NCBI GenBank assembly: GCA_035629865.1
Contig: DASPHC010000055.1
Coordinates: 70,940-134,939, forward strand
Reading direction: 5' to 3'
Origin: Thermoanaerobaculia bacterium
GTDB taxonomy: Bacteria; Acidobacteriota; Thermoanaerobaculia; Gp7-AA8
DNA: 64,000 nucleotides
The notes beneath the pieces were generated by a model. The model was given only the letters and a program-made list of their open reading frames with translations. It ran no database searches and was not told the DNA's origin. Made by a program: the position numbers and the translations under genes. Shown here piece after piece: positions 2,791 to 60,740 of the stretch. How positions within the stretch are numbered: position 1 is the stretch's first letter; each line of letters opens with the position of its first letter.

Positions 2791-2797
2791 GCTCCCC

Positions 2798-5319: not shown

Positions 5320-5460
5320 CGCGGAGCTGGGGTCAGAGCTTCGTTTCGCGCGGAACAGAAGAACGAAGGTGTGACCCCAAGCGACGGGGCCGGCGGTTCC
5401 TCGGAGGGGTCAGAGCTTCGTTTTTCTCTCAGGAACAGCAGAACGAAGGTCTGACCCCTT
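5320..5460. repeat. REP-like palindromic elements (GGGGTCAGAGCTTCG / CGAAGGTCTGACCCC family), 2-3 copies in a divergent intergenic region
   Basis: Direct reading: ggggtcagagcttcgtttcgcg...cgaaggtgtgacccc and ggggtcagagcttcgtttttctc...cgaaggtctgacccc. Confidence 0.8.
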
Positions 5461-5559
5461 GACAGCCCCACTTCTGCCTTCTGCCCTCTGCCTTTCCCAC
5501 GTGGTCAATTCGCTGACCCTTTAGACACCTTTGGTGGGTTATATTCTCACCCCGCCATC

Positions 5560-10935: not shown

Positions 10936-11198
10936 CCTTACGGCGAGACGCCGCCGCCGGCGGGACGCCGCCGGACCAGCCGACGAGGACGTCGGCGCTC
11001 CAGGCGCGGACCGCGGTTCTCGCGAATCGGGCCGTCCGCAGTTCTCGCGAATCGGGCCGTCCGCGGTTCTCGCGAATCGAAACGTCGGCATTCCAGCGCA
11101 CGACCGATGCTCGTGAACGGAGGTCCGCGCGTGGAGCGCCGACGTCCTCGTCGGCTGGCCCGGCGGCGTCCCGCCGGCGCACGGCGTCTCGCCGTAAG
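10936..11198. repeat. MITE-like element with ~75-bp near-perfect terminal inverted repeats (CCTTACGGCGAGACGCC...) and three internal tandem 24-bp repeats (GGTTCTCGCGAATCGGGCCGTCCGC)
   Basis: Left arm 10936-11010 is the reverse complement of right arm 11121-11198. Internal direct repeats sit at 11012-11085. A shorter copy occurs at 44645-44830. Confidence 0.8.
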
Positions 11199-11285
11199 GG
11201 TGGTGCCCAATCACCTGGTAGCGCGGTATCCTTGTCCTGGTGAACGCCGGTTCCGCCCGGCGGGTGTGCGAAAAGGGGAGGGCCA

Positions 11286-17084: not shown

Positions 17085-17200
17085 CAATGGGAGCTATGGG
17101 ACCTATGGGACAAATATGGGGTGAGCTGCCTCGTTTCATTCGTCCTATCGTCCCATAGGTCCTATTGGTCCCATTCGTCCTATCGGTCCCACATGCGTCC
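17085..17200. repeat. Cluster of short palindromes (GTCCTATAGGAC / GGACCAATAGGAC family) immediately after the mgtE stop
   Basis: Sequence reads ...gggacctatgggacaaatatgggg...gtcctatcgtcccataggtcctattggtcccattcgtcctatcggtccc. The same family recurs at 54175-54265. Confidence 0.7.
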
Positions 17201-18926: not shown

Positions 18927-19390
18927 CAGAGACGCGAGCGGTCGAGATGACCGAGGACCGGATCCCGCTGGAAGGGATCGAAGAAACGATCGAAGAGCTG
19001 GTGGACCTCTTCGGCGGCAACATCACCGCCGAGCGCGATCGCGCCCGCGACTTCATCCTCCCGCTACGCCGCGGCATCGCCACCGGCGGTGGAGTGGAGT
19101 GCACCGTCTCCTGGGCACCCGCCGCCGAAGGCGACGGCACGGTGACCATGACCTGCAACCGCGACGTCGACGCCCCCAAAACCCAGCGCATCCTCCTCCT
19201 CGCCGCCGGTGTCATCGGCGCAGTGATGTTCATGCTCTGGCCCTTCTTCCCCCACGAAAAGGAGTACGGAACCCTGGCCTGGCTCGGCGGCGCAGTCGCC
19301 ATTGCCGTCTACCTCATGACCCTCCGAAAAACCAGCGGCGGCATCGCCCACGACTTCCTCCAGCGCCTGGCGACGCGACAACGCGCGTAA
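18923..19390 (+). CDS. Hypothetical membrane protein (155 aa), translationally coupled (ATGA overlap) to the M61 peptidase gene
   Basis: ORF with two predicted TM helices (ILLLAAGVIGAVMFMLW, LAWLGGAVAIAVYLM); no recognisable catalytic motifs. Confidence 0.4.
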   Translation: MTETRAVEMTEDRIPLEGIEETIEELVDLFGGNITAERDRARDFILPLRRGIATGGGVECTVSWAPAAEGDGTVTMTCNRDVDAPKTQRILLLAAGVIGAVMFMLWPFFPHEKEYGTLAWLGGAVAIAVYLMTLRKTSGGIAHDFLQRLATRQRA

Positions 19391-19700
19391 ACCCTTGGGG
19401 TCAAAGCTTCGCTCTTTCGCATTGCTGAGAAAATAGCGCGTAACGCTTGGGGTCAGAGCTTCGCTCTTTTGCATTCCCAGCTTATTTAGGGTCAGAGCTT
19501 TGTTCTTTCGCATTCCCGAGAAAATGAAAGCTCTGACCCCATTGGGGCCGGACGAGCCTGGGGCGGCAGAGCTTCGTTTTTCGCATTTCTGACGAAAAGC
19601 AACGCTCTGGCCTCCTTGTGTAAGGCCGGAACGGTTGTGGAGAAACGGACGGGCACTCGCTGCGGTGAGCAAAGCGACGCCGATTTACGCCGCCTCGTAC
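19385..19700. repeat. Array of at least four REP-like palindromes (GGGGTCAGAGCTT(C/T)G family) in alternating orientation (REPIN-like doublets), downstream of the RAYT pseudogene
   Basis: ggggtcaaagcttcgctctttcgc..., ggggtcagagcttcgctcttttgc..., gggtcagagctttgttctttcgcattcccgagaaaatgaaagctctgacccc, and others. Confidence 0.85.
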
Positions 19701-20832: not shown

Positions 20833-20879
20833 GCACCCATGTCTACGAACGGTAGAACGGCGTTCGCCAGTTCCTCGTC

Positions 20880-21000
20880 GAAGGGGTCAAAGCTTCGCTC
20901 TTTCGTGAGCCGTAAGAAAGCCAAAGCTCTGACCCCATACATACGGGGGTCAGAGCTTCGTTTTTTCGTTGGCTGCCGAAGATCAAAGCTCTGACCCCAG
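20880..21000. repeat. REP-like palindrome doublet (same family) upstream of the RAYT pseudogene
   Basis: ggggtcaaagcttcgctctttcgtgagccgtaagaaagccaaagctctgacccc and ggggtcagagcttcgttttttcgttggctgccgaagatcaaagctctgacccc. Confidence 0.85.
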
Positions 21001-21044
21001 GTGCCGGGGCGCCGGCGTGACCGCCGGCGCCCGTTCTCGGGAAT

Positions 21045-23129: not shown

Positions 23130-25142
23130 CTATTTTTGGTCCGTGTCGCAGCTCGGGACGAAGTAAAGCCGGATGGATTTCCCTACCCGACGTCGCGACG
23201 AGTGATTTTTCAGCCAGGCGAGTGAGCCGTGGTGTTTCTCGATCCAGGACATTTCGCTGATCGCGATCCAGCCAGTGACGCAGCGTGCGGGGATCTTCTC
23301 GGCGTGAGGCAGGCGCTGTTTCCATCCGGTCGAGCCCCAGTAGTCGACGTAGAGCGGCGAGAGGTTTTCGGTTTCGGCAACGGCAGCGAGGCGGAGGAGA
23401 TCCTGCCCCCAGTCGAGATTGCTGTCGGCGGCGACGCGCTCGGGATGTCTGCCCGCGACTTCGTTGAACCAGGCGAGGTAATCGGGGTGGGCGAGCGTCG
23501 TTCCGGCGAAAAACCAGACCAGCAGAGCCGCGACCGTGACTCTCGCCGCCTTGCCTCGATGCCACAGCCAGACCACCGCGACCGCGGCGGCGAGGGCCAG
23601 GAAGGGATAGAGGGGGAGGATGTGCCGGACGCCGATGTTGATCCTGCTGGTCATCGCGACGGCGAGCATGGCCAGAGGGATGAGGGCAAGGGCGAGGTTC
23701 TCGGGAGTACTCCCGGTCTGTAGTTTCTTCGCGGTGCGAGTTGCTGGTTGCTGGTTGCCTGTGATTCCGGGTCTTGGCCGGGCCCCGAGCAGCAGGCCGC
23801 CCACCATCGCCAGCGCCAGGAACGCCAGCGGTGTCTTGTAGAAGAGGATGACCGGAAAGTAATACCACCAGCCGGTATTGCGGGACTCGCCGAAGAGGTA
23901 GGCGGGATGGCCGACGGCGGAGTGGCGGCGGACGTACTCGGCGCCGGCAATGTACGACGGAGCGAGGATCGGGATGTGGGTGGCGATCCACTGGAGGGAG
24001 GCCCGGAACGGCTCGGCGACTCGCTGGCTGAGCGTCGGTTTCGGGACCGGCGGCGCTCCGGCGAGCGTGTTTCCCTTGCGACCGGCGAGAGGCGATGGGT
24101 AACCGGCCGCTTTGGCCCAATCGACGAAGTCGATGCCGGCGATCCCGTGCTTTCGCTCTACCTCGCCGGCGAAGTCGTAGTAGCGGTCGAGCAGGTCGGG
24201 GCGTACCCACTCGTAGCCCGGCTCGCGCGCGTACCTGGCGGCGATGTGCTGGGGAGCTTCGCCGTCGAAGGTATCGAGGCGGACGCTGTTCAGCAAGCCG
24301 GTCTCGCCGCGGTAGGCGAGCCAGATCAAGAGGATAGCCACGATTCCGGCGGCCAGAAAACGAACGACGAAGGGGTCACACCTTCGTTCTTTGATGTCGG
24401 GGTCAGAGCTTCGCTCTTTCGCCCCGATGGGGTCAGAGCTTTGTTTTTCCGCCGGCGAGGAAAGAACGAAGGTGTGACCCCTTCGGAGCAGGAAGAGCGA
24501 AGCTCTGACCCCAAGGAGGACGAGGAAGCCGGCGCCGAAGAAGATCAGGAAGGAGAATTTGCCGAGGAGGCCGGCGCCGAGGGCGAGGCCGAAGAGGAGG
24601 GTGTGCTTCCAGTTGGGCTGCTCCAGCCAAAGGGCGAAGGTGAACAGTGCGGCGGCGGTGCCGGCGGCGGCCGCCATGTCGGTGGTGGTCAGGCCGGCGT
24701 GGGCAAGGACCGGCGGGAGTGCGCCGAAGAGGGCGGCGGCGATGACGCCCGCGAGATCGCCGGCCAGCCTGCGGGTCCAGAGGAAGACGATCGCCAGCGC
24801 CAGGAGGAAGAAGGGGAGGTTGCCGGCGCGGGCGGCGGTGAGGTTGCGGGGATACTCTTCGTTGCGCTCGAGAAGCTGGTTGCCTCGCGCGGCGCGGCTG
24901 AGGCTCCGGTCGATCTCCGCGCCATCGAGCCAGGCGTCGATGGCGAAAAATATCCGGGCCAGCGGCGGATGTTCGCGATCGAGCGTGTACCGCCCCTCAT
25001 CCAGCCATTGGAAGCCGGCGGCAACGTGAATCGGCTCGTCGATGGTCTGGCTGAAGAGCGTCCAGGTCGACGCAATCCGGATTACTGGCACCAGGACCAG
25101 GACCGCGAGCACGATCGCAAGCCGCCGCCTCGTCATCTGCAT
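23130..25142 (-). CDS. Polytopic membrane glycosyltransferase, GT39/PMT_2 (ArnT-like) family, carrying an in-frame insertion of REP elements in a loop
   Basis: About 12 TM helices. TM1 followed by a loop with the DE motif (TIDEPIHVAAGFQWL...EHPPLARIFF). Start chosen at MQMTRRRLAIVLAVLV. Positions 24355-24525 (REP family) translate in-frame as ...SSPAEKQSSDPIGAKERSSDPDIKERRCDP... Confidence 0.5.
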   Translation of the reverse strand: MQMTRRRLAIVLAVLVLVPVIRIASTWTLFSQTIDEPIHVAAGFQWLDEGRYTLDREHPPLARIFFAIDAWLDGAEIDRSLSRAARGNQLLERNEEYPRNLTAARAGNLPFFLLALAIVFLWTRRLAGDLAGVIAAALFGALPPVLAHAGLTTTDMAAAAGTAAALFTFALWLEQPNWKHTLLFGLALGAGLLGKFSFLIFFGAGFLVLLGVRASLFLLRRGHTFVLSSPAEKQSSDPIGAKERSSDPDIKERRCDPFVVRFLAAGIVAILLIWLAYRGETGLLNSVRLDTFDGEAPQHIAARYAREPGYEWVRPDLLDRYYDFAGEVERKHGIAGIDFVDWAKAAGYPSPLAGRKGNTLAGAPPVPKPTLSQRVAEPFRASLQWIATHIPILAPSYIAGAEYVRRHSAVGHPAYLFGESRNTGWWYYFPVILFYKTPLAFLALAMVGGLLLGARPRPGITGNQQPATRTAKKLQTGSTPENLALALIPLAMLAVAMTSRINIGVRHILPLYPFLALAAAVAVVWLWHRGKAARVTVAALLVWFFAGTTLAHPDYLAWFNEVAGRHPERVAADSNLDWGQDLLRLAAVAETENLSPLYVDYWGSTGWKQRLPHAEKIPARCVTGWIAISEMSWIEKHHGSLAWLKNHSSRRRVGKSIRLYFVPSCDTDQK
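24355..24525. repeat. REP-like palindromes embedded in-frame inside the GT39-like gene
   Basis: ggggtcacaccttcgttctttg...ggggtcagagcttcgctctttcgcc...ggggtcagagctttgtttttcc...cgaaggtgtgacccc...agcgaagctctgacccc. Confidence 0.8.
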
Positions 25143-26749
25143 TCCGGAATGGAGTAGAGCCGCAGGGAGGCGCCGATCCGGCGCACCGGCTGGTGCGCGT
25201 CGAGCCATGCATACGCCTGCGGCTCCTCGGCAATCTTCTTCATCTCGCTCAGCACCACCCAGCCGGTCACACACTGGCCGAGCGGCAGCGGCCGGGCGTG
25301 CGGGATGTGCACGCCCGGATCGGCCCAGCCGAAATACGCAAGATGGATCGGGGCGAGGCGCTCCCGTTCGACCACGCCGGCGAGCCGGTAAAGGTCCTGT
25401 CCCCAGTCGAGGTTGCTGTCGGAGGCGATCCGCTCCGGATGCCTGCCGGCCATCTCATTGAAATAGCTAAGGTAATCGGGATGGGCGAGGGCCGTGGCGA
25501 CGAAGAGCCAGCCCGCCAGCGTCACCGAGAGCACCTGTCCGGTACGGCTGCCTTTCCACCCCCAGACCACTGCCACGGCCGCTGCCATCGCCAGGAGCGG
25601 ATAGATCGGGAGCAGGTGCCGGACGCCGATGTTGATCCGGCTCGTCATCGCCATGCCCAGCATCGCCACGGGGATGAGAGCCAGATCCCAACGTCCCAGC
25701 CGCGCGAGTATCACCATCCCCGTCCCGGCGAGCAGCAGGAAGGCGATCGGCGTCTTGAAGAAGAGGATGACCGGAAAGTAATACCACCAGCCCCCCTGCC
25801 GAATCTCGCCGAAGAGGAAGGCCCGGTGATCTCCGCCGGAGTGGTCCGCCAGATACTGCAACCCGCTGAAGTAGCCTGTTACGTTGAACTTATAGAGAGC
25901 GATGACCATCAGGACGGTGGCCGTAGCAGCGACGCCGAGCTGGATGGGGTCACACCTTCGTTCTTTCATCGTGATGGGGTCAGAGCTTCGTTTTTCTGTT
26001 TTGGCGAAAAAAGCAAAGCTCTGACCCCGGCGCGACCGCGAAGAACGAAGGTCTGACCCCAAATCGACCGAAGAACGAAGGTCTGACCCCAAGTCGCCCC
26101 CGGGCGAAGAACGAAGGTGTGACCCCAGGAGAACGAGTGCCCCGACGCCAAAGTAGGCGATGAACGAGAATTTCGACGCCATCCCGACCGTGAGCGCAAG
26201 GCTGAGGACGGCGGCCCGGCTCCACCGCGGCTCGTCGAGCCAGCGGGAGAAGGCGTAGAGCGCGGCTGCGACGGTCGCGGTGGCGGCCATGTCCGTCGTC
26301 GCCAGGCCGGCATGGGCGAGGGTGGGGGGGAGGGCGCCGAAGAGGGCGACGGCGAGAAGGGCCGTGCCGGTCCCGGCCACCCAGCGGGTCCAGAGGAAAA
26401 CGATCGCCATCGCCAGGAGGAACCAGGGGAGGTTCGCCACTCTGGCTGCTGTTACGTTGCGGACGACGTGGGCGTCGCGGTAGACGATCGGCGCGCCCTG
26501 CTGGACCGGCGCGAGGGCCGGGTCGAGCCGCGTTCCCGCCAGCCAGGCATCGAGCGCGAAGCCGATGCGCGCGAGCGGCGGGTGCTCCGGGTCGACGCGA
26601 TACGAGTCCTGCGTCAGCCACTCCAGGCCGGCGGCGATGTGATACGGCTCGTCGGCGGTCAGGCTGAAGACGGGATAGGTCGCCGCAATGCGCGCGATCG
26701 CGACCAGGGTCAGGATCGCGAGCAGTGCGGCGACACGTCCACGGGACAT
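25133..26749 (-). CDS. Paralogous GT39/PMT_2-like membrane glycosyltransferase, also with in-frame REP insertions at the equivalent loop
   Basis: The N-terminus MSRGRVAALLAILTLVAIARIAATYPVFSLTADEPYHIAAGLEWL...EHPPLARIGF parallels the downstream paralogue. Positions 25960-26135 translate in-frame as ...DLRSSRSRRGQSFAFFAKTEKRSSDPITMKERRCDP... The gene overlaps the next by 10 bp. Confidence 0.5.
   Translation of the reverse strand: MSRGRVAALLAILTLVAIARIAATYPVFSLTADEPYHIAAGLEWLTQDSYRVDPEHPPLARIGFALDAWLAGTRLDPALAPVQQGAPIVYRDAHVVRNVTAARVANLPWFLLAMAIVFLWTRWVAGTGTALLAVALFGALPPTLAHAGLATTDMAATATVAAALYAFSRWLDEPRWSRAAVLSLALTVGMASKFSFIAYFGVGALVLLGSHLRSSPGGDLGSDLRSSVDLGSDLRSSRSRRGQSFAFFAKTEKRSSDPITMKERRCDPIQLGVAATATVLMVIALYKFNVTGYFSGLQYLADHSGGDHRAFLFGEIRQGGWWYYFPVILFFKTPIAFLLLAGTGMVILARLGRWDLALIPVAMLGMAMTSRINIGVRHLLPIYPLLAMAAAVAVVWGWKGSRTGQVLSVTLAGWLFVATALAHPDYLSYFNEMAGRHPERIASDSNLDWGQDLYRLAGVVERERLAPIHLAYFGWADPGVHIPHARPLPLGQCVTGWVVLSEMKKIAEEPQAYAWLDAHQPVRRIGASLRLYSIPECR
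25960..26135. repeat. REP-like palindromes (4-5 copies) embedded in-frame inside the second GT39-like gene
   Basis: ggggtcacaccttcg..., ggggtcagagcttcgtttttctg...caaagctctgacccc, cgaaggtctgacccc x2, cgaaggtgtgacccc. Confidence 0.8.
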
Positions 26750-27938: not shown

Positions 27939-28053
27939 GGTGAAGCCTCCGGTGGGGAGTGAAGTTCGGCGCGCATCATAGCTGAACGAGGGCAGAGGGC
28001 CGAGGGGGGAGGGCCGAGGGAAAGGAAATTACGAGAGTGAAACTGGAAACCGA

Positions 28054-28143
28054 TGGTGCCCCGGGCCGGACTCGAACCGGCACGCCCCTCACGAGGCAGC
28101 GGATTTTAAGTCCGCAGCGTCTACCAAATTCCGCCACCGGGGC
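28054..28143 (-). tRNA. tRNA-Leu (anticodon UAA), class II with long variable arm
   Basis: Minus-strand transcript GCCCCGGTGGCGGAATTTGGTAGACGCTGCGGACTTAAAATCCGCTGCCTCGTGAGGGGCGTGCCGGTTCGAGTCCGGCCCGGGGCACCA. 7-bp acceptor stem, D-arm, anticodon stem GCGGA/TCCGC with loop CTTAAAA (anticodon TAA), long variable arm, T-arm GGTTCGAGTCC, encoded CCA. Confidence 0.9.
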
Positions 28144-28149
28144 CGCTAT

Positions 28150-28262
28150 GTGAATGATAGAGGGCAGAGCGCCGAGAGGCCAAGGGCCGAGGAGCCGAAG
28201 CCGTGGTCATGCTCTGCGACGATTCCCTTGGCCCTCGGCCCTTGGCCCTCTGCCCTCCGGAA
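28150..28262. repeat. Long hairpin of the GGCCGAGGGC family (GAGGGCAGAGCGCCGAGAGGCCAAGGGCCGAGG ... inverted partner) adjacent to tRNA-Leu. A related direct copy lies at 27985-28020 on the other side of the tRNA.
   Basis: gagggcagagcgccgagaggccaagggccgaggagccgaagccgtggtcatgctctgcgacgattcccttggccctcggcccttggccctctgccctc. Confidence 0.75.
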
Positions 28263-42163: not shown

Positions 42164-42174
42164 CGCGTCAACGC

Positions 42175-42335
42175 ACAGGGGACGACCGGGAGGCCTCCGG
42201 CGGGCGGGCACGGCCCGCGGCGTTTGTTTTCGCATGGACCGCGTTTCGTGCGAGACGCGTGCGTTCAGCCTTGGGCGACAAACGCCGCGGGCCGTGCCCG
42301 CCCGCCGGAGGCCCCCGTCGTCTCCTGTGCCGGTG
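42175..42335. repeat. ~150-bp imperfect palindrome (GACGACCGGGAGGCCTCCGGCGGGCGGGCACGGCCCGCGGCGTTTGT ... inverted partner) between convergent gene ends; possible bidirectional terminator / MITE. Second copy at 55055-55205.
   Basis: Arm 42178-42225 is the reverse complement of 42283-42330; the same element recurs at 55058-55200. Confidence 0.75.
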
Positions 42336-44479: not shown

Positions 44480-44644
44480 GAGCGTGGGATGGTAGCAAAG
44501 GGGCCTTGTGGAGGGCCGACCGAAGGTCGGCGCTCCGTCACGCGTCCCTTCGGGACGACACGCCTCCCGTACCACCCCCGCGTCGGCCAATCCGGCGACC
44601 TCCAGGTCAGCCGCGGAGCGGCGAAAGAACGTGCGTCCGAGGAT

Positions 44645-44830
44645 TCCTCCCCACCCTTACGGCGAGACGCCGTCCGCCGGCGAGACGCCGCCGGACCAGC
44701 CCGCGCGACGCGGGCGCTCCCGGCGCGGACGCACCATTCGCGCTGACGGTCGTCCATGCGTGGAGCGCCGACGTCGCGTCGGCTGGCCCGACGGCGTCCC
44801 GCCGGCGGACGGCGTCTCGCCGTAAGGGGA
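44645..44830. repeat. Second, shorter copy of the CCTTACGGCGAGACGCC-TIR MITE-like element
   Basis: ccttacggcgagacgccgtccgccggc ... gccggcggacggcgtctcgccgtaagg. It is followed by a GGTTAAGGTTA x3 microsatellite at 44840-44875. Confidence 0.75.
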
Positions 44831-44982
44831 GGGGCCTTCGCCCGTTAGGTTAAGGTTAGGTTAAGGTTAGCGCCGCTCCTCAGCATCCCGATCAGGCTGT
44901 CCTTCCGGCCGCCCATTTTCGCGCGCGGAGTAGAGCGCGACCAAGTAGTGTGGTTACGCGTCCCTTCGGGACGCGCCACGGG

Positions 44983-48779: not shown

Positions 48780-49145
48780 TGGGGGGAGGGCCGAGGGCCC
48801 CGGAGACAGGGCCGAGGGCCGAGGGCCGAGGGCCGAGGGGAAGCAAGATAGCCGCCGGAGGCGGCGATAGATCTGTAGGCCCGCCCTTCAGGGCGGGTTT
48901 GCGCGGATCGGGGAGCGGCGAGTCCGCGTAGCGGGCGACAGAACAGGGACTCGCGTGAATCCTATCCTGTCGCCCGCTTCGCGGGCTTGCCTTGGCGGGC
49001 CGCGTGGTGCCCGGCCTGAAGGCCGGGCCTACAGATCTTTCGCCGCCTTCGGCGGCTGGGGCACGATCGCACCATCCGATCTGGCGTCGATGGCGATCCT
49101 CGTTTCCGGCCCTCAGCCCTCGGCCCTCGGCCCTCGGCCCTGTCT
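48780..49145. repeat. Composite element between dnaG and mutS2: flanking GGGCCGAGGGCCGAGGGCCGAGG / inverted arrays enclosing a ~230-bp MITE-like core with ~45-bp TIRs (GCCGCCGGAGGCGGCGATAGATCTGTAGGCCCGCCCTTCAGGGCGGG ... CCCGGCCTGAAGGCCGGGCCTACAGATCTTTCGCCGCCTTCGGCGGC)
   Basis: Direct reading. The core contains internal inverted repeats (CGGGCGACAGAACAGGGACTCGCG ... GTCGCCCGCTTCGCGGGC). A second core copy lies at 60550-60740. Confidence 0.8.
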
Positions 49146-49147
49146 CC

Positions 49148-51538
49148 CTACTCATCCAACACCGCAATCGTCGCCCCATCTCCGCCTTCATTCTCCGCGC
49201 CTGGCCGCCACGACTTTACGGCGGGGTGTTTCTTGAGGTGCTGGCGGATGGCTTTGCGCAGGGTGCCGGTGCCGAAGCCGTGGATGATGCGGACGGCCTG
49301 CTTTCCTTCGAGTAATGCGCGGTCGAGGAATTTGTCGGATTCGTCGAGGGCGTCGTCGACGCGCTGGCCGATCAGGTTGAGCTCCGCGGCTATCATAGGG
49401 CCGAGGGCCGAGGGCTGAGGGCCGAGGGCGAAGCCTGAAGGAGCGGAGCCCCTCGGCCCTTTGCCCTCGGCCCTCGGCCCTGCATCTTTCGGGATGAGGT
49501 CGCGCAGCTCGACCGTCACTTTGCGGCCGCTGACGGTCATGATGGCTTTGGCGCCTTCGATCGAGATCACTTCGCCGACGACTTTGAACTTGCGGTGCTC
49601 GGCTTTGTCGCCGACGCGCACTTCGCGCTGTTCGGCGGGGATGAACTCCATTGCCTTATCAAGCGGCTTGGTGACCGTCCGCAAGACCTCGGTCGCGTTC
49701 AGGGAGGCGCGGGCGGTGCGGTCCATGTCGCGGAGGTTCTTGATCTCGTTCGTCACCTGGCGGGCGACATCGTCGCGCAGGCGCTCGAGTTCTTCACGGT
49801 AGGTCGTGCCGAGGCGGGTGCGCTCTTTCTCCAGCGCCTCGGATTTCTGCTGCATCGTGGTCCGCTCGCGCTCGAGGTCTTTGCGCAGGCTCAGCACCTC
49901 GTCCTGCTGCGCGACGATCTCGGACATCTTCTTCTGCAGCGTGGCCAGCAGATGGTCGGTCTCGCCGTAACGCTCGCCGAGGCGCTCCTTCGCCGAGGCG
50001 ATGATCGGGGCAGGGAGGCCGATGATCTTGGCGACCTCGATGGCGCGCGAGCGGCCCGGGATGCCACTGATCAGCCGGTAGGTCGGCTGGCCGGTCGCGG
50101 AGTCGAACTCCATCGAGGCGTTGACGATGCGGGTGTCGTTGACGGCGAAGCTCTTGAGCGCGGAGAGGTGGGTGGTGACGACGAGCAGCGCGCCGGTCTC
50201 GAGCAGGTGCTCGATCACCGCCGCGGCGATGGCGGCCCCTTCTTCCGGATCGGTTCCGGAGCCGAGCTCGTCGAGCAGCACCAGCGATTTGGGGGTGGCG
50301 CGGGCGAGGATGCGCTTGAGGCGCATCAGGTACGCCGAGAAGGTCGAGAGGTGTTCGAGGACGCTCTGGTCGTCGCCGATCAGAACGTGCAGCGCGTCGA
50401 CGACCGGCAGTACGGTCCCTTCGGCGGCGGGGACGGGAAGGCCGCTCATCCCCATGGCCACCAGGAGGCCGGCGGTCTTGAGTGAGACGGTCTTGCCGCC
50501 GGCGTTCGGTCCGGAGACGACGAGCGCGGATTTCTCGCCGGTGAGGTCGATCGTCAGGGGGATGACTTTCCGGCCGCTCGGCTCTTCACCAAAGGCGGTC
50601 TCGCGCGCGTCGGCGAGGCGCTCGTCGAGCAGCGGATGGCGTCCTTCGACGATGTGCAGCGTGCGGTCGCTCGAGAACGACGGGCGCGCGGCGCGGATGG
50701 CGTCGTGGAAGACGGCGCACGCCTGCAGGGCGTCGAGCTCGCCGGCGACGGCGGTGGCCTCGAGGATGCCGAGGCGATGCTCGAAGACGGTCTGGGAGAC
50801 GAAGCGGGTGATGCGGGCGATCTCTTCGCGCTCCTGGATGAGGAGGTCGGCGAGGTCGTTGTTCAATTCGATGGCCTGCATCGGCTCGATGAAGAACGAC
50901 GCGCCGGAGCCGGAGCGCTCGTGGAGGATGCCGGGGACGGCGTTGCGGTTGTCGCTGCGGATGGGGATGCAGTAACGGTCGCCGCGCATGACGATCAGCG
51001 GCTCCTGAACCGCGTCTTCATTGCGGTTCATGATGTCGTTGAGGGTCTTCTGGATGGCGGAGCGTTTCTGGTGGACGCGGGTGCGGATGGCGCGCAGCTC
51101 GGCCGACGCTTCTTCGCGCAGCTTGCCTTCGCGGGTGAAGTATTTGTTGGTCTTGGTCAGCAGCTCGCCGAGGTCGGGGATGGCCGCGGACATGGCCAGC
51201 AGGCGTGGGAAGCCGCTGGTGCGCTGGAGGGTCTCGCGGATGGCCTGGGTGGCGCGGACGGCCCGGACGACGTGCCACGATTCTTCGATCTCGAGGACGG
51301 TCTCGCGGTCGAATAGCGGCCGCAGGTCGTCGAGGCCGGCCAGCGGCAGGAGTCCCTCGGTGTGGAAGAAACGGACCATCTCGGCGAGGTCGGCCTGCGC
51401 GCTCTCGCACTCGGCCGCCGTCCGCAACGGCCGCCGCCGAGCGACGGCTTCCTTGCCGGGGACGCTCTTGGCTTCCATCGCGACCAGCGTGAGGACGCGG
51501 TCGAATTCGAGGGTGGTCAGGGATTCAGGGTTGGTCAT
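49148..51538 (-). CDS. mutS2: Endonuclease MutS2 (MutS domain III/ATPase plus C-terminal Smr domain), with an in-frame GGCCGAGGGC-palindrome insertion in the linker before Smr
   Basis: Walker A GPNAGGKT, MutS signature region, C-terminal Smr (ELNLIGQRVDDAL...VRIIHGFGTGTLR). The linker ...DAGPRAEGKGPRGSAPSGFALGPQPSALGP... is encoded by the repeat at 49380-49480. Confidence 0.85.
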   Translation of the reverse strand: MTNPESLTTLEFDRVLTLVAMEAKSVPGKEAVARRRPLRTAAECESAQADLAEMVRFFHTEGLLPLAGLDDLRPLFDRETVLEIEESWHVVRAVRATQAIRETLQRTSGFPRLLAMSAAIPDLGELLTKTNKYFTREGKLREEASAELRAIRTRVHQKRSAIQKTLNDIMNRNEDAVQEPLIVMRGDRYCIPIRSDNRNAVPGILHERSGSGASFFIEPMQAIELNNDLADLLIQEREEIARITRFVSQTVFEHRLGILEATAVAGELDALQACAVFHDAIRAARPSFSSDRTLHIVEGRHPLLDERLADARETAFGEEPSGRKVIPLTIDLTGEKSALVVSGPNAGGKTVSLKTAGLLVAMGMSGLPVPAAEGTVLPVVDALHVLIGDDQSVLEHLSTFSAYLMRLKRILARATPKSLVLLDELGSGTDPEEGAAIAAAVIEHLLETGALLVVTTHLSALKSFAVNDTRIVNASMEFDSATGQPTYRLISGIPGRSRAIEVAKIIGLPAPIIASAKERLGERYGETDHLLATLQKKMSEIVAQQDEVLSLRKDLERERTTMQQKSEALEKERTRLGTTYREELERLRDDVARQVTNEIKNLRDMDRTARASLNATEVLRTVTKPLDKAMEFIPAEQREVRVGDKAEHRKFKVVGEVISIEGAKAIMTVSGRKVTVELRDLIPKDAGPRAEGKGPRGSAPSGFALGPQPSALGPMIAAELNLIGQRVDDALDESDKFLDRALLEGKQAVRIIHGFGTGTLRKAIRQHLKKHPAVKSWRPGAENEGGDGATIAVLDE

Positions 51539-52091: not shown

Positions 52092-54179
52092 ATGAAAATG
52101 TTGAAAATAACAATGCTGGCGCTGCTCCTCGCCTCCTGTGCGACGCAGCCGGCCCCTCGAACGGCCTCGGTAGCGACCCCTGCGGTTCCGGTCACGGAGG
52201 CCCGTCCGGCGCGAGAAGTTCTCCATGGTGTAGAGATCTCCGATCCGTACCAGTGGCTCGAGGATCAGGAGGCTCCGGCCACCCGCGAATGGATCAGCCG
52301 GCAGAATGCCTACACGGACGCGATCCTCGGTCCGCGCCCGGAGCCGGGCATCTTCGCGGCCCGGCTCGAGCAGCTCATGACCACCGACAAGATCTCCGCC
52401 CCGCACTACCGCAACGGGCGTTTCTTCTTCCTGCGCCGCGCCATCGGGGAGGACCAGGCCTCCCTCTATCTGCGCGACCGGAAAGGGAAGGAGGAGCGGC
52501 TGATCGACCCCGCGCCGATGAGCCCGGACCATACCGTCAGCGTCGGCATCTACGACATCACGCCGGACGGGAAGTTGCTGGCCTACTCGGTGCGCAAGGG
52601 GGGAGCGGACGAAGTCGAGATCCGTTTCTACGACACCGATGCCCGCCGCGACATCGGCGAGCCTCTGGCACGCGAACGTTTCTACACGGTCAACATCGCC
52701 CCGAACAACGACGTCTATTACACACGCCGGACGGCGGCCGGTCCTCGCACGTTCCGCCGTCCGCTCACCGGCGGGCGGGAGCACGAGCTGTTCGGCAGCG
52801 GCTACGGTCCGGAGAAGCTCATCTACAGCGCGCTGTCGGAGGACGGACGCTATCTGCTGGTCAACGTCCTCCACGGATCGGCGCCGAAGAAGACGGAGAT
52901 CTACGTCGACGACCTGCGCGATGCCGCTCCGCCGCAGACGGTGGTGAACGACCTCGATTTCCGCACGTTCGGCGAGATGGCCGGCGACTCGATCGTCCTC
53001 CACACGAACTGGAACGCGCCGAACGACCGGGTGATGGTCGCCAGCGCGGCCGCGCCGGGACGCGGGCAGTGGAGGGAGATCGTGCCGGAGAATCCGAAGG
53101 CGGCGATCCAGTCGACGTCACTCGCCGGGGGCCGCGTCTATGTGAAGTATCTCGAGGAGGTGAAGCCGCGCCTGATCGGCTACGACCTCGAGGGCAACCG
53201 GAAGGACGACGTGGCGTTTCCGACCCTCGGCAACCTCAGCGACATGTCGGGGACGTGGACCTCGCCGGTGGCCTTCTTCGGCTTCAGCTCCTTCCACGTG
53301 CCGAACACCATCTATCAATATGACGTCGCGACCGGCGGCCGGTCGGTCTTCACGGTCGAGAACGCGCCGGTGAAGCCGGACGACTTCACGGTCGAGCAGG
53401 TGTGGTACCCGTCCAAGGACGGGACGCGCGTTCCGATGTTCCTGTTGTCCCGCAAGGGCGTGCAGCGCAACGGTGCGAATCCGGTCTTCCTGACCGGTTA
53501 CGGCGGCTTCACCTCCAGCATGACACCGTCGTTCTCGGCGAAAGCCATCGCCTGGGTCGAGCAGGGAGGGATCTATGCGGTCCCGAACCTCCGCGGCGGC
53601 GGGGAGTTCGGCGAGGCGTGGCATCGGGCCGGGATGCAGGACACGAAGCAGAACACGTTCGACGACTTCATCGCGGCGGCCGAGTATCTGGTGCGCGAGC
53701 GCTATACGTCGCCGCGGCACATCGCCATCGCCGGCGGCAGCAACGGCGGCCTGCTGGTGATGGCCGCGGCGATGCAGCGGCCGGATCTCTTCGGCGCCGT
53801 GGTCTGCCGCTATCCGTTGATCGACATGCTTCGCTATCACAAGTTCCTCGTCGGCAGCTTCTGGGTGCCGGAGTACGGCGACCCCGCGAAAGCCGAGGAG
53901 TTCCAGTGGGTGTATGCGTACTCGCCGTATCACAAGGTGAAGCAGGGGACGAAGTATCCGGCCACGCTCTTCATCACCGGCGACGCCGACACGCGCGTGG
54001 CTCCGCTGCACGCCCGGAAGATGACGGCGCTGATGCAGGCCCAGGCCGGGAACGGTCCGGAAGACCCGATCCTGCTGCGCTATCACATCGCCGGAGGGCA
54101 CGCGGGCGGAGAGCCGCTCGCCGTGCAGGTGAAGAACGCGGCCGAGGAGTTGGGGTTTGTGTGGTGGCAGGTGAAATAG
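52092..54179 (+). CDS. Prolyl oligopeptidase (S9A family) lipoprotein
   Basis: Lipobox LLASCAT; N-terminal beta-propeller; catalytic domain with GGSNGGLL (Ser nucleophile), plus catalytic Asp/His regions (GDADTRV, GGHAG). Start chosen at MKMLKIT with RBS AAGGAAA. Confidence 0.85.
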   Translation: MKMLKITMLALLLASCATQPAPRTASVATPAVPVTEARPAREVLHGVEISDPYQWLEDQEAPATREWISRQNAYTDAILGPRPEPGIFAARLEQLMTTDKISAPHYRNGRFFFLRRAIGEDQASLYLRDRKGKEERLIDPAPMSPDHTVSVGIYDITPDGKLLAYSVRKGGADEVEIRFYDTDARRDIGEPLARERFYTVNIAPNNDVYYTRRTAAGPRTFRRPLTGGREHELFGSGYGPEKLIYSALSEDGRYLLVNVLHGSAPKKTEIYVDDLRDAAPPQTVVNDLDFRTFGEMAGDSIVLHTNWNAPNDRVMVASAAAPGRGQWREIVPENPKAAIQSTSLAGGRVYVKYLEEVKPRLIGYDLEGNRKDDVAFPTLGNLSDMSGTWTSPVAFFGFSSFHVPNTIYQYDVATGGRSVFTVENAPVKPDDFTVEQVWYPSKDGTRVPMFLLSRKGVQRNGANPVFLTGYGGFTSSMTPSFSAKAIAWVEQGGIYAVPNLRGGGEFGEAWHRAGMQDTKQNTFDDFIAAAEYLVRERYTSPRHIAIAGGSNGGLLVMAAAMQRPDLFGAVVCRYPLIDMLRYHKFLVGSFWVPEYGDPAKAEEFQWVYAYSPYHKVKQGTKYPATLFITGDADTRVAPLHARKMTALMQAQAGNGPEDPILLRYHIAGGHAGGEPLAVQVKNAAEELGFVWWQVK

Positions 54180-54265
54180 GACCTATAGGACGAATGGGAC
54201 CAATAGGACGGCGTCATTCGTCCTATTGGTCCTATGAGTCCCATAGGTCCTATTTTGGATCACGC
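54175..54265. repeat. Second copy of the GGACCTATAGGAC / GGACCAATAGGACG palindrome cluster, between convergent 3' ends of the prolyl oligopeptidase and udk genes
   Basis: ggacctataggacgaatgggaccaataggacggcgtcattcgtcctattggtcctatgagtcccataggtcctat, including the perfect hairpin GGACCAATAGGACG / CGTCCTATTGGTCC. Confidence 0.75.
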
Positions 54266-55029: not shown

Positions 55030-55057
55030 CGCGGCGAAGGATAACGGATTCCGGTGG

Positions 55058-55200
55058 CACGAGGGGACGACGGGAGGCCTCCGGCGGGCGGGCCCGGCCC
55101 GCGGCGTTGGTTGCCATAAGCTGAACGCACGCTCTCGAACGAAACGCGGTTTGCGCGAAAACAAACGCCGCGGGCCGGGCCCGCCCGCCGGAGGCCCCTC
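55058..55200. repeat. Second copy of the GACGAC(C)GGGAGGCCTCCGGCGGGCGGGC...palindrome family
   Basis: gacgacgggaggcctccggcgggcgggcccggcccgcggcgttgg...ccaacgccgcgggccgggcccgcccgccggaggcccctcgtcgt. Confidence 0.75.
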
Positions 55201-55214
55201 GTCGTTCCCTCGTG

Positions 55215-55949
55215 TCACCGGTTGCCGATTCTCGGCACGATGAACTTTCCGGAGTTGGTCGCGTTCTCGACGACCGAGGCGTAGACGTGGGTGTCGCGGG
55301 AAGACGTCTCGATTACCACGGAGAACCCTTCCCCTTTGGTGATCATCGGAAAGAGCGACTGGACGGCCATGTGGACGAGCGAGCCGGCGTCGACGCTGAT
55401 GTTGGTCACGGCGACGCTGCGGCCGGGGATGCGCTGCAGGGCGAGGAGGAACTCGGCGGGGCGCTCGCCGGTGTTGACCAGGCCGAGGTTCGTCCGGAAA
55501 TCGTCACTGAAGGCGAGGCCGTCGAGGACGCGCACCGGAAAGTAGGTGTCGGGGCCGTAGGTGGCGATCGTCTGCGGCGGCGAGATCTCGGCTCCGCGGA
55601 CCGCGTAGGCCTGGGCGCGCACGGTGAGGCCGCGGCGGCCGGCGGTGGTGATGCGCAGCGGGGAGAGGGCGGAATCGAGACCGAAGGCCTGGCCGACGAT
55701 GTCGGTGAAGCGCTGCGACTGGCCGGGCGAGAGGGTGAAGGCGACCATCGGCGAGCCGGAGCCGGCGGGGAGCTCGAGGGCGACGTCGACTTCGAGGCCG
55801 GTCTCGTTCACCAGCTCGACGTCGGTCAGCCAGCGAATCATCGTCGGGCCGAAGACGCTGCCGACCACCGGGACGATCGTGGTGGCGGTGCTCTGCGCGC
55901 GAGCCGTCGCGGCAAACAGCAGTAATCCAATCAGAAGTCGAAACTTCAT
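55215..55949 (-). CDS. Secreted hypothetical protein
   Basis: Signal peptide MKFRLLIGLLLFAATARA; beta-rich, no recognised motif. Confidence 0.45.
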   Translation of the reverse strand: MKFRLLIGLLLFAATARAQSTATTIVPVVGSVFGPTMIRWLTDVELVNETGLEVDVALELPAGSGSPMVAFTLSPGQSQRFTDIVGQAFGLDSALSPLRITTAGRRGLTVRAQAYAVRGAEISPPQTIATYGPDTYFPVRVLDGLAFSDDFRTNLGLVNTGERPAEFLLALQRIPGRSVAVTNISVDAGSLVHMAVQSLFPMITKGEGFSVVIETSSRDTHVYASVVENATNSGKFIVPRIGNR

Positions 55950-59750: not shown

Positions 59751-59807
59751 TTCCAGTAGAAACCGCGGACGGCGTATCGCGCCGCCGTAGGCGGCGGAAG
59801 ATCTGTT

Positions 59808-60546
59808 AGGGGTAGGAGGAGGCCTCCCGGCCTCCCCCTCCCTCCGAACCGGACTGGCGGATCTCCCGCATCCGGCTCTCCAGGGGTGGATGCGATGGCA
59901 GATGTGTACACGTGGGACTTGCGTCACGGTGAAAGAAGTCTGACGTGCTGACTCACTGCTGAGTCACTCTGTCACCAGAGCCCATCTACATCGGTCGATC
60001 AGCGCCCCGGCGGGTGCGAGCACGAATTCGCCTGCTCGCAGCTCTCGCGTTTCTAGCCTTTCGGCAATTGGCGATTCCCCGTCTTGACGTTGCCTTCCGA
60101 TTCCACCTCCCTGCCTCCCTTTGCTCCACGCCCGTTACAGCGCTTCTCAGCTCCTATGGAGGCTCAGTCACCCGTCTGCCTTTCACTTGCGCAGCTGCGG
60201 GGATCCCCGATTCACGTCACCTGAATCTTCCTGTCGTTCTGTCTCCAACCACCCCGTGCCTTCCCATGTCCGCTTTCTCCATGCTCGGTTAACTTTCGCG
60301 TTCTGGGTTCGTCACCGTAGAGCCGTTTCCCGTCAGCGCTCATCGGTTTCCAAGGCTTCGCCTCTGCCTAGCAGGCTCGCCAAGACACAAGGCCGAATCG
60401 AGTTTCTAGTCGTACGGACCGACAGGCTCGCCTTCCGTTGCTCTCCACCCCGTCTTACGACGACGCAGTTTCGGTCGGCTTTCAACCAGTCGAGCATTTG
60501 GTTGAGAGTGTTCTCACCTCCTCTTTCAGGTGCGCTTTCGAGCGCA
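59808..60546 (-). ncRNA. ORF-less group II intron (~740 nt), inserted into the left terminal inverted repeat of a MITE copy
   Basis: Minus-strand 5' end GUGCGCUCGAAAGCGCACC (GUGYG) begins immediately after MITE sequence (+ strand 60541-60546 gcgcac). Domain V at 59846-59878 reads GAGCCGGAUGCGGGAGAUCCGCCAGUCCGGUUC (consensus GAGCCGUAUGCGAUGAAAGUCGCACGUACGGUUC), with the AGC triad and a GNRA loop. Domain VI-like hairpin GGAGGCC-GGGA-GGCCUCC with a bulged A follows. The region has lower GC (~55%) and no protein-like ORFs. MITE TIR halves flank it at 59785-59807 and 60547-60570. Confidence 0.65.
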
Positions 60547-60740
60547 CTAAGCCCGCCCTTCAGGGCGGGTATCGTGCGGCCCCCATGAAGGCGAGTCCGC
60601 GAAGCGGGCGACAGAACAGGGACACGCGAAAACCTACGCTGTCGCCCGCTTCGCGGACTTGCCTCGTCTCCTCGACCTTTACCCGGCCTGAAGGCCGGGC
60701 CTACAGATCTTTTGCCGCCTACGGCGGCGGCGGATCGTTC
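60547..60740. repeat. Second copy of the ~230-bp MITE-like core, whose left TIR is interrupted by the group II intron (the outer TIR half lies at 59785-59807)
   Basis: taagcccgcccttcagggcggg...gagtccgcgaagcgggcgacagaacagggacacgcg...gtcgcccgcttcgcggacttgcc...ccggcctgaaggccgggcctacagatcttttgccgcctacggcggc. Compare 48853-49085. Confidence 0.75.

Follow-up and report, generated by a model that had tools for sequence, protein, structure and literature searches.

A group II intron within a palindromic repeat

The window analysed here, i.e., the whole stretch of 64,000 nucleotides (nt) from contig DASPHC010000055.1 of a Thermoanaerobaculia bacterium (Acidobacteriota), carries an element of 742 nt on its minus strand (60547 to 59806), between the genes for murJ (Pfam E-value 2e-87) and an oligopeptide-type ATP-binding cassette (ABC) ATPase. 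Both flanking genes are located on the plus strand, so that the element is intergenic and antisense to both, and its splicing would therefore be irrelevant to either of them. The element, reading from 5' GUGCG to CCCCUAA 3', is a group II intron without a gene for a reverse transcriptase (RT) and interrupts a palindromic repeat (59781..60728; parts 59781-59805 and 60548-60728). On the minus strand, this repeat ends with ...ACCCGCCCTGAAGGGCGGGCTTA and is followed by GTGCGCTCGAAAGCGCAC...; about 740 nt further on, GAGCCGGATGCGGGAGATCCGCCAGTCCGGTTC GGAGGGAGGGGGAGGCCGGGAGGCCTCCTCCTACCCCTAA is encountered, and then CAGATCTTCCGCCGCCTACGGCGGC.

An Rfam search of the whole window at gathering threshold returned a tRNA gene and RF00029, the model of domains V and VI of group II introns, as the sole matches. 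The latter match (59805-59880, minus strand; 53.6 bits versus a gathering threshold of 40; E-value 1e-7) bears out the first-pass annotation of this DNA, which had recognised a group II intron with domains V and VI on the minus strand from the letters alone; the GUGCG start, the branch-point adenosine, and the pairing with the 5' exon described below are in line with it. Domain V (59846..59878, minus strand) comprises 33 nt, with an AGC triad, a 2-nt bulge, and a GAGA-type loop. It is invariant across 15 aligned copies of the intron (see below), except for two substitutions found in one copy each, namely a C-to-T change in locus L122, by which the pair is kept as G-U, and an A-to-C change in the bulge in locus L132. 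Domain VI (59808..59845, minus strand), as delimited by RF00029 and by an alignment-based fold, contains a branch-point A (59813) that is bulged and lies 7 nt away from the 3' splice site. This residue corresponds to the unpaired A766 of the alignment, and the domain VI helix (helix 33) displays three compensatory pairs. Based on these ribozyme landmarks, an intron of the self-splicing type is predicted. Compared with the 15-copy consensus, the window copy has no disabling insertions or deletions (indels), and its domain V, domain VI, and exon-binding site 1 (EBS1) are intact.

The 5' splice-site consensus GUGCG (60543..60547, minus strand), read directly from the sequence, is invariant in the 15 copies and starts at 60547, precisely where the similarity to an intact sister copy of the repeat breaks off, which is the junction at which it had been placed beforehand. 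At the other end, relatives of the window intron terminate with CCCCTAT, 7 nt past the bulged A, and the next base varies. Because of these ends and of the gap-free collinearity with the sister repeat, CCCCTAA (59806) was taken as the intron end and C59805 as exon. This first base of the 3' exon (59805..59805, minus strand), presumed to be intron-binding site 3 (IBS3), is assigned to the repeat by comparison with the sister copy and is a C in 10 of 11 copies without an open reading frame (ORF). The limits 59806..60547 are homology limits shared with 16 other ORF-less copies, and excision between them restores the collinearity of the repeat, as expected for a complete ORF-less intron, probably of group IIC. 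The first-pass annotation had given 59808-60546, which is the correct location and size (about 740 nt), with ends that are 1-2 nt off. It had also reported a drop in GC content of 13%; the intron is indeed poorer in GC than its surroundings (59.8% versus 66.9% in the 2 kb on either side), by 7 points or about 10% in relative terms.

Hairpin targets and exon recognition

The intact sister of the host repeat (48851..49056; I10), with inverted arms of 48 nt, was retrieved from an inverted-repeat listing and alignments. When 59806-60547 is removed, the host repeat is collinear with this sister (81.6% identical over 207 nt) and folds as one long hairpin. With the slash marking the insertion point, the junction reads ...GAAGATCTG/TAAGCCCGCCC versus ...ATAGATCTGTAGGCCCGCCC in the sister, without gap or duplication, which is the signature of precise retrohoming; within the repeat arm, the insertion point is CCCGGCCTGAAGGCCGGGCCTA/CAGATCT. 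The target sequence before insertion can thus be reconstructed, as had been anticipated. The host repeat possesses terminal inverted repeats and occurs in multiple copies, two of them in the window and related ones in loci L122 and L134, and no obvious target-site duplication was found beside either copy in the window. It can be described as resembling a miniature inverted-repeat transposable element (MITE), MITE status not being proven. In the first-pass annotation, the intron split one terminal inverted repeat of a MITE with a sister at 48853-49085; the split terminal arm and the sister are real, and the assignment as a MITE is not strictly proven. Heptamer arrays of the type (GGGCCGA)n bracket the sister repeat in inverted orientation (48787-48846, 49109-49147, and 49397-49482), and similar arrays (27988-28022 and 28223-28257) also bracket a tRNA gene of 87 nt with a long variable arm (28057-28143, minus strand), probably for leucine.

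The 5' exon target (60548..60570, minus strand) consists of the hairpin CCCGCCC-UGAA-GGGCGGG (60569-60552; fold of -15.5 kcal/mol) and intron-binding site 1 (IBS1), GCUUA (60552-60548). Its counterpart EBS1, 5'-UAGGC-3' (60366..60370, minus strand), lies in the loop of a hairpin (60376-60360) with the sequence GCCUGC-UAGGC-AGAGGC (nt 172-188 of the intron) in domain I, where a hairpin loop is also placed by RF02001 (model D1-D4-3), used only for this placement. The EBS1 pairs with the GCUUA that ends the 5' exon at five of five positions, so that the pairing of domain I with the reconstructed target, implicit in the first reading of this DNA, was indeed found. Four or five of five pairs were likewise present in 13 of 13 ORF-less copies, which use nine different EBS1 sequences. 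In addition to UAGGC/GCUUA of the window, the EBS1/IBS1 combinations encompass UAGCG/CGCUA, UAGGG/CCCUA, UAGCC/GGCUA, GAGUG/CACUC, CUACC/GGUAG, UAGCA/UGCUA, and GAGCG/CGCUC, plus two cases at four of five pairs. For 32 distinct members of the wider family, the mean contiguous EBS1-IBS1 run was 3.16, versus 1.39±0.2 when the partners were shuffled (0/5000); the cases that failed reflect problems of register or boundary parsing in one sublineage. The 3' exons of several ORF-less copies (the window copy and loci L126, L128, L127, and L096) begin with CAGAT, CAGAC, or CACAT; the target preference could extend past position +1, or the host repeats could be related to each other.

Insertion directly 3' of a stem-loop is the defining behaviour of group IIC introns (PMC4424553; PMC12584367). 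The 32 nt upstream of 13 ORF-less insertion sites had a mean folding energy of -16.8 kcal/mol, versus -7.6±3.9 kcal/mol for controls drawn at random from these loci (1,950 positions). Each of the 13 upstream 32-mers was at or below -12.1 kcal/mol, a value reached by 12.9% of the controls. Further, every family member examined, with or without an ORF, has a stem-loop plus a spacer of 2-5 nt directly upstream. No T-run follows the target hairpin in the window, which is hence not a canonical terminator. The suggestion that the insertion recalls the targeting of terminator-like or attC-like stem-loops by IIC introns is thus upheld as to the class of the relatives and their position, all 3' of hairpins, and not as to a terminator.

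Unoccupied ideal targets, composed of a hairpin and GCCUA/C, were retrieved by a site scan at 48875..48898 (minus strand; site ending after 48876), at 49009..49032 (plus strand; after 49031), and, in the second arm of the repeat that carries the intron, at 60681..60704 (plus strand; after 60703). Three of the four repeat arms in the window are thus empty, and all three empty sites would pair perfectly with the EBS1 UAGGC. In another genome, the intron of locus L134, which is 82% identical to the window intron, occupies the equivalent position in the same repeat family, the other arm again being empty; the arrangement in locus L131 is probably the same. The intron of locus L122 is inserted in a member of another palindromic repeat family, which is represented in the window as well. 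Members of the latter family (10954-11212 and 44642-44833 in the window; about 5380-5452 in L122) are long palindromic repeats with arms of 76-83 nt, which supply the hairpin target of the L122 intron. This common family suggests that L122 originates from a relative of the organism represented by the window. The presence of introns in several palindromic repeat families indicates that the lineage repeatedly exploits such repeats, in which the preferred hairpin is found repeatedly and in both strands. When all loci were compared with the window by megablast in search of an allele with an empty site, only the duplicate contig L121 and a repeat fragment in L122 matched.

Relatives and conserved RNA structure

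Domain I of the window intron (nt 68-200) shares about 74% identity with that of introns on plasmids of Cupriavidus and Paraburkholderia, one of which contains an annotated ltrA gene coding for a protein of 445 amino acids (aa). Alignment to the RT-bearing introns is collinear (nt 78-200 with nt 78-198, and domains V/VI with domains V/VI). The best PDB matches of the 445-aa RT of the relative are of class IIC (GsI-IIC 6ar1, E-value 9e-62; 7uim, 5e-57), those of other classes being weaker (IIB 6me0, 2e-45; IIA LtrA, 3e-40). Assignment of the element to an IIC-like class is supported by these RT matches of its relatives, taken as such and not as an RT phylogeny, and by the position of the introns after hairpins.

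A scan of a genome collection with a domain I pattern yielded at least 118 loci from many phyla. Among the matches listed, about 30 carry an RT ORF, with about 1700 nt between the domain I motif and domain V, and seven are ORF-less, with 530-680 nt. At least three full-length copies of the window intron are present in this collection, namely L096 from an Acidobacteriota metagenome-assembled genome (MAG; 92.6% identity) and L072 and L046, both from Thermoanaerobaculia (86% and 83%, respectively); the contig of L096 carries another copy, L011. A scan of metagenomes, with one exact lineage-specific 24-mer as query, added 13 loci, all full-length and ORF-less, 80-93% identical, and none with an RT. 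The flanks and EBS1 of one of them, L125, are the same as those of L072, which looks like one insertion sampled twice. In total, the ORF-less lineage comprises at least 17 copies that are 80-93% identical, in MAGs of Acidobacteriota/Thermoanaerobaculia and in metagenomes. In all ORF-less copies, the homology starts at GTGCG and stops at CCCCTAA(C), and the flanks are unrelated. As the members are located after unrelated hairpins and the EBS1 of each fits its own site, the lineage moved repeatedly while being ORF-less. In one metagenome copy (L132, about 905-930), the 3' strand of domain VI is missing, so that this copy is 3'-truncated or decayed. The exact domain V-VI sequence had no match in viral contigs.

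The nearest RT-bearing introns among the matches listed are L074 of a member of the Nitrospirota (69% identical in domains I-III) and the decayed L066 of a member of the Acidobacteriota. Independent ORF-less offshoots of this IIC family are represented by L006, L030, and L064 in Planctomycetaceae and by L041 in Blastocatellia. In a Planctomycetaceae MAG, the ORF-less L006 and L030 share 89-92% identity with the RT-bearing L106 at its ribozyme ends. In two Planctomycetes MAGs, dozens of contigs end inside the IIC-family intron, which implies very high copy numbers, and a Gemmatimonadales MAG (L021, about 2700-4740) carries two IIC introns of the same family in tandem, the second beginning with GTGCGCCC... 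directly after the CCCCTAT of the first.

The consensus structure was derived from an alignment of 15 copies (A4), of which the part before domain V and domains V-VI were folded separately with RNAalifold, because whole-sequence folding of four copies mispaired domain V with an upstream GGGGAUCCCC palindrome. Domain I (approximately 60214..60535, minus strand) is closed by the helix CACCUGAA/UUCAGGUG (nt 13-24 with nt 323-334), which contains one covarying pair (columns 18/344). The helices resembling domains II and III (approximately 60110..60203, minus strand) are mostly invariant in the consensus fold, and the homology with L074 extends through them. This homology continues to the position of the RT start codon (ATG) of L074 and then ceases. 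At the place of the RT ORF, the window intron has a domain IV of about 220 nt (59886..60107, minus strand), a structured module with two multi-helix arms (60100-59992 and 59989-59898). Among the loci compared, this segment (nt 441-662) is confined to the ORF-less Acidobacteriota lineage, and tblastn revealed neither RT similarity nor an ORF remnant in it. A conserved mini-ORF after a purine-rich motif was considered and excluded, as both lengths and frames differ among the copies.

In the consensus fold of the 15 copies, 97% of the cells are paired. Changes on both sides were found for 44 base pairs, versus 18.2±2.4 after shuffling (0/500) and 5-10 when the partners were slid. Many of the compensatory changes occur in the domain IV helices 20-31, indicating that this domain is a selected, structured RNA and not the debris of a decaying ORF. 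Selection thus maintains base-pairing in the ribozyme and in the domain IV module of about 220 nt.

The window contains further repeats. Hairpin repeats of about 50-70 nt (GGGGTCAGAGCTTCGTTTTTC ... GAAGGTCTGACCCC) occur in many copies, often in clusters (5406-5463, 19390-19631, 20876-21015, 24392-24520, and 25945-26134). A pair of long inverted or palindromic repeats, with arms of 62-82 nt that are 83-97% complementary, is present at 42174-42316 and 55051-55221, and repeats with a 9-nt period (GTCCTATTGGTCCCATTCGTCC...) are inverted at two distant places (17145-17189 and 54174-54259). Direct repeats of 271, 129, and 117 nt (23562-26462; 73-79% identity; about 1.6-2.0 kb apart) suggest a tandemly duplicated gene segment.

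Mobility and comparison with known introns

Group II introns of bacteria are seen as retroelements whose survival hinges on their own RT, and a review of 2015 describes ORF-less ones as rare, deprived of retromobility, and not persisting (PMC4424553). The main exception concerns one cyanobacterial genome, that of T. elongatus, in which ORF-less introns are mobilised by co-resident driver RTs acting in trans (PMC2882425). The element at 60547 to 59806 is likely an intact-looking ORF-less intron of the IIC type that behaves as a non-autonomous retroelement and would be moved to hairpin sites by an RT supplied in trans. Such an RT might be provided by an RT-encoding intron or be another RT elsewhere in the genome. 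As known for IIC introns, the excised intron RNA would be bound by a class C RT, which lacks an endonuclease (PMC4424553), and would insert by reverse splicing into single-stranded DNA in which the hairpin is exposed together with IBS1 and IBS3, for example at a replication fork. The inserted RNA may then be copied into DNA by this RT, primed at replication forks, and palindromic repeats would provide many preferred hairpin sites on both strands. Indirectly and by analogy, an RT in trans is made plausible by the pair formed by L006/L030 and L106, by the driver RTs of T. elongatus (PMC2882425), and by the decayed RT-bearing L066 within the Acidobacteriota.

Several observations weigh against this interpretation. 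Three perfect targets at distances of up to 12 kb are empty, including one in the intron's own repeat, and the pairing at the occupied site includes a G·U at a position at which the empty ones would form G-C. No RT similarity was detected in the element or anywhere in the 64-kb window (tblastn with the RT of a relative as query), no RT gene was found beside any ORF-less copy, and an RT-bearing sibling whose ribozyme matches closely was absent from the genome matches listed and from the metagenome matches to the 24-mer; given this search scope, the missing sibling is weak evidence against an RT in trans. A scan for promoters and terminators detected no minus-strand promoter at the element, and EBS3 was not located. 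In addition, RF02001 gave 20.1 bits on the window copy, below its gathering threshold of 32, which was exceeded in the RT-bearing relatives L001 and L002, and the structure of domains I-IV stems from RNAalifold instead of a curated IIC model, its domain limits being approximate.

The empty sites indicate that the targets are not saturated and that the intron may be inactive in this genome, suggesting low or no current activity there. An immobile relic of a past invasion, left without a suitable RT and now inert or at most self-splicing in an intergenic repeat, would fit these sites, the single copy and the absence of an RT in the window, the antisense orientation to both neighbours with no promoter detected, and the literature view of bacterial ORF-less introns as splicing-only and short-lived (PMC4424553). 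This is nevertheless rather unlikely, as the window copy is free of disabling indels relative to the 15-copy consensus, its domains V and VI and EBS1 are intact with five of five pairs formed, and the lineage overall clearly kept moving; the relic explanation bears on present activity only, and not on the identity of the element or its arrival. It is also improbable that the intron entered an ancestral repeat once and reached the locus as a passenger, through transposition or recombination of the repeat-intron composite. In favour of such a history, the same repeat family is interrupted at the equivalent position in other genomes, namely by introns of the lineage in L134 and probably in L131. 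However, the EBS1 sequences differ and each fits its own arm (UAGGC/GCUUA in the window, UAGCA/UGCUA in L134, and UAGCC/GGCUA in L131), the window and L134 have only matches of 21-35 nt in common in their repeat parts, as against 82% identity of their introns, and three of the four arms in the window are empty. Moreover, other members with matching EBS1 are found after unrelated hairpins, so that retrohoming is the normal route of the lineage.

With respect to the source of the RT, mobilisation could be non-cognate, through a free-standing group-II-like RT, another host RT, or reverse splicing followed by host repair, with domain IV as the recruiting module. The lineage has diverged internally by 20% and no RT-bearing sibling appears among the matches listed, and its domain IV, an RNA module of about 220 nt that is specific to the lineage, is conserved in structure and contains no ORF remnant, both of which would suit this possibility. 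It is given a low probability, as the sibling searches covered the matches listed and one 24-mer, the IIC family includes RT-bearing introns in related phyla (L074) and, decayed, in the Acidobacteriota (L066), the L074 homology up to the RT start codon is compatible with an ordinary RT-binding region, and known ORF-less introns use the RTs of related introns (PMC2882425). Finally, the region might not be an intron at all, but a decayed protein-coding gene or a chance likeness to domain V in GC-rich DNA, as such DNA yields long stop-free stretches, among which an ORF of 155 aa on the opposite strand. This has practically no probability. None of the six ORFs overlapping the element had a match in Pfam (best E-value 0.21), and ORF lengths and frames vary among the copies. 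The covariance-model match above gathering threshold, the EBS1-IBS1 covariation, and the 44 compensatory pairs likewise speak for an intron. A decayed gene was hence excluded for want of any tblastn or Pfam signal, in agreement with the first-pass annotation, which had seen no protein-like ORF in this region.

Among known systems, the element resembles group IIC introns such as B.h.I1, GsI-IIC, and O.i.I1 in its insertion directly 3' of a DNA hairpin, its short EBS1-IBS1 pairing, and its presumed one-base contact with the 3' exon (PMC4424553; PMC12584367). In line with this, the RTs of its RT-bearing relatives, which presumably lack an endonuclease and comprise about 445 aa, match those of GsI-IIC and of the E. 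rectale IIC intron best. Unlike classical IIC introns, the window element has no RT ORF and its target is a repeat hairpin without T-run; its EBS1 pairing extends over 5 bp, domain V comprises 33 nt, and domain IV is a structured module of about 220 nt. Similar to IIC-attC introns (e.g., S.ma.I2), it is IIC-like and targets an imperfect-palindrome stem-loop of another mobile or repeated element (PMC4424553). However, IIC-attC introns encode their own RT, whereas the window element has no evident integron context and is hosted by a palindromic intergenic repeat of about 207 bp.

The ORF-less lineage is also reminiscent of TeI3 of T. elongatus, an ORF-less lineage that descends from RT-bearing introns, occupies new sites with matching EBS/IBS, and has a remodelled domain IV (Mohr et al. 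2010, PMC2882425). TeI3 mobility depends on RTs in trans, as is proposed here for the window lineage (PMC2882425). However, TeI3 is of the IIB/CL type, resides in one genome beside its driver RTs, and has recognisable N- and C-terminal ORF remnants (PMC2882425), whereas the window lineage is IIC-like, targets hairpins, occurs in several MAGs and metagenomes at 80-93% identity, and shows no ORF remnant or sibling RT among the matches listed. Copies of a group II intron of Pseudomonas putida KT2440 are found in or next to repetitive extragenic palindromic (REP) elements too (two of nine copies; Tobes & Pareja 2006, PMC1525189), but that intron encodes its own RT and its REP association is partial, whereas the window lineage is located after hairpins at 13 of 13 sites, several in palindromic repeat families. 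The Clostridium tetani intron C.te.I1 is another bacterial ORF-less group II intron without obvious partner RT (PMC4424553); it is single, gene-embedded, and alternatively splicing, in contrast with the window element, which is intergenic, antisense to its neighbours, and part of a multi-copy lineage in multiple genomes. No published description of this ORF-less lineage was found in the literature covered, which was incomplete. Known are mobile ORF-less introns (TeI3), hairpin targeting by IIC introns, and REP-associated introns; new is a diversified ORF-less IIC lineage with an EBS1 retargeted for each hairpin and a structured domain IV. This lineage does not fit the generalisation that ORF-less introns are rare, immobile, and non-persistent (PMC4424553).

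Tentatively, the lineage may represent a group II intron comparable to a short interspersed nuclear element (SINE), i.e., a long-lived, horizontally spreading ORF-less IIC lineage in which the RT gene was replaced by a structured RNA module, without close RT-encoding sibling, borrowing a distant IIC or free-standing RT, and specialised on palindromic-repeat hairpins in Acidobacteriota. We consider this doubtful as a whole; if true, it would be at odds with the notion that bacterial group II introns without an ORF are immobile and do not last long. For genome annotation, such elements escape intron finders that are based on RTs. If confirmed, the present findings would point to non-autonomous, SINE-like evolution in IIC introns across genomes, would provide naturally compact ΔORF IIC ribozymes with a simple, programmable targeting of 5 nt, and would offer a tractable case of one mobile element, the intron, parasitising another repeat family.

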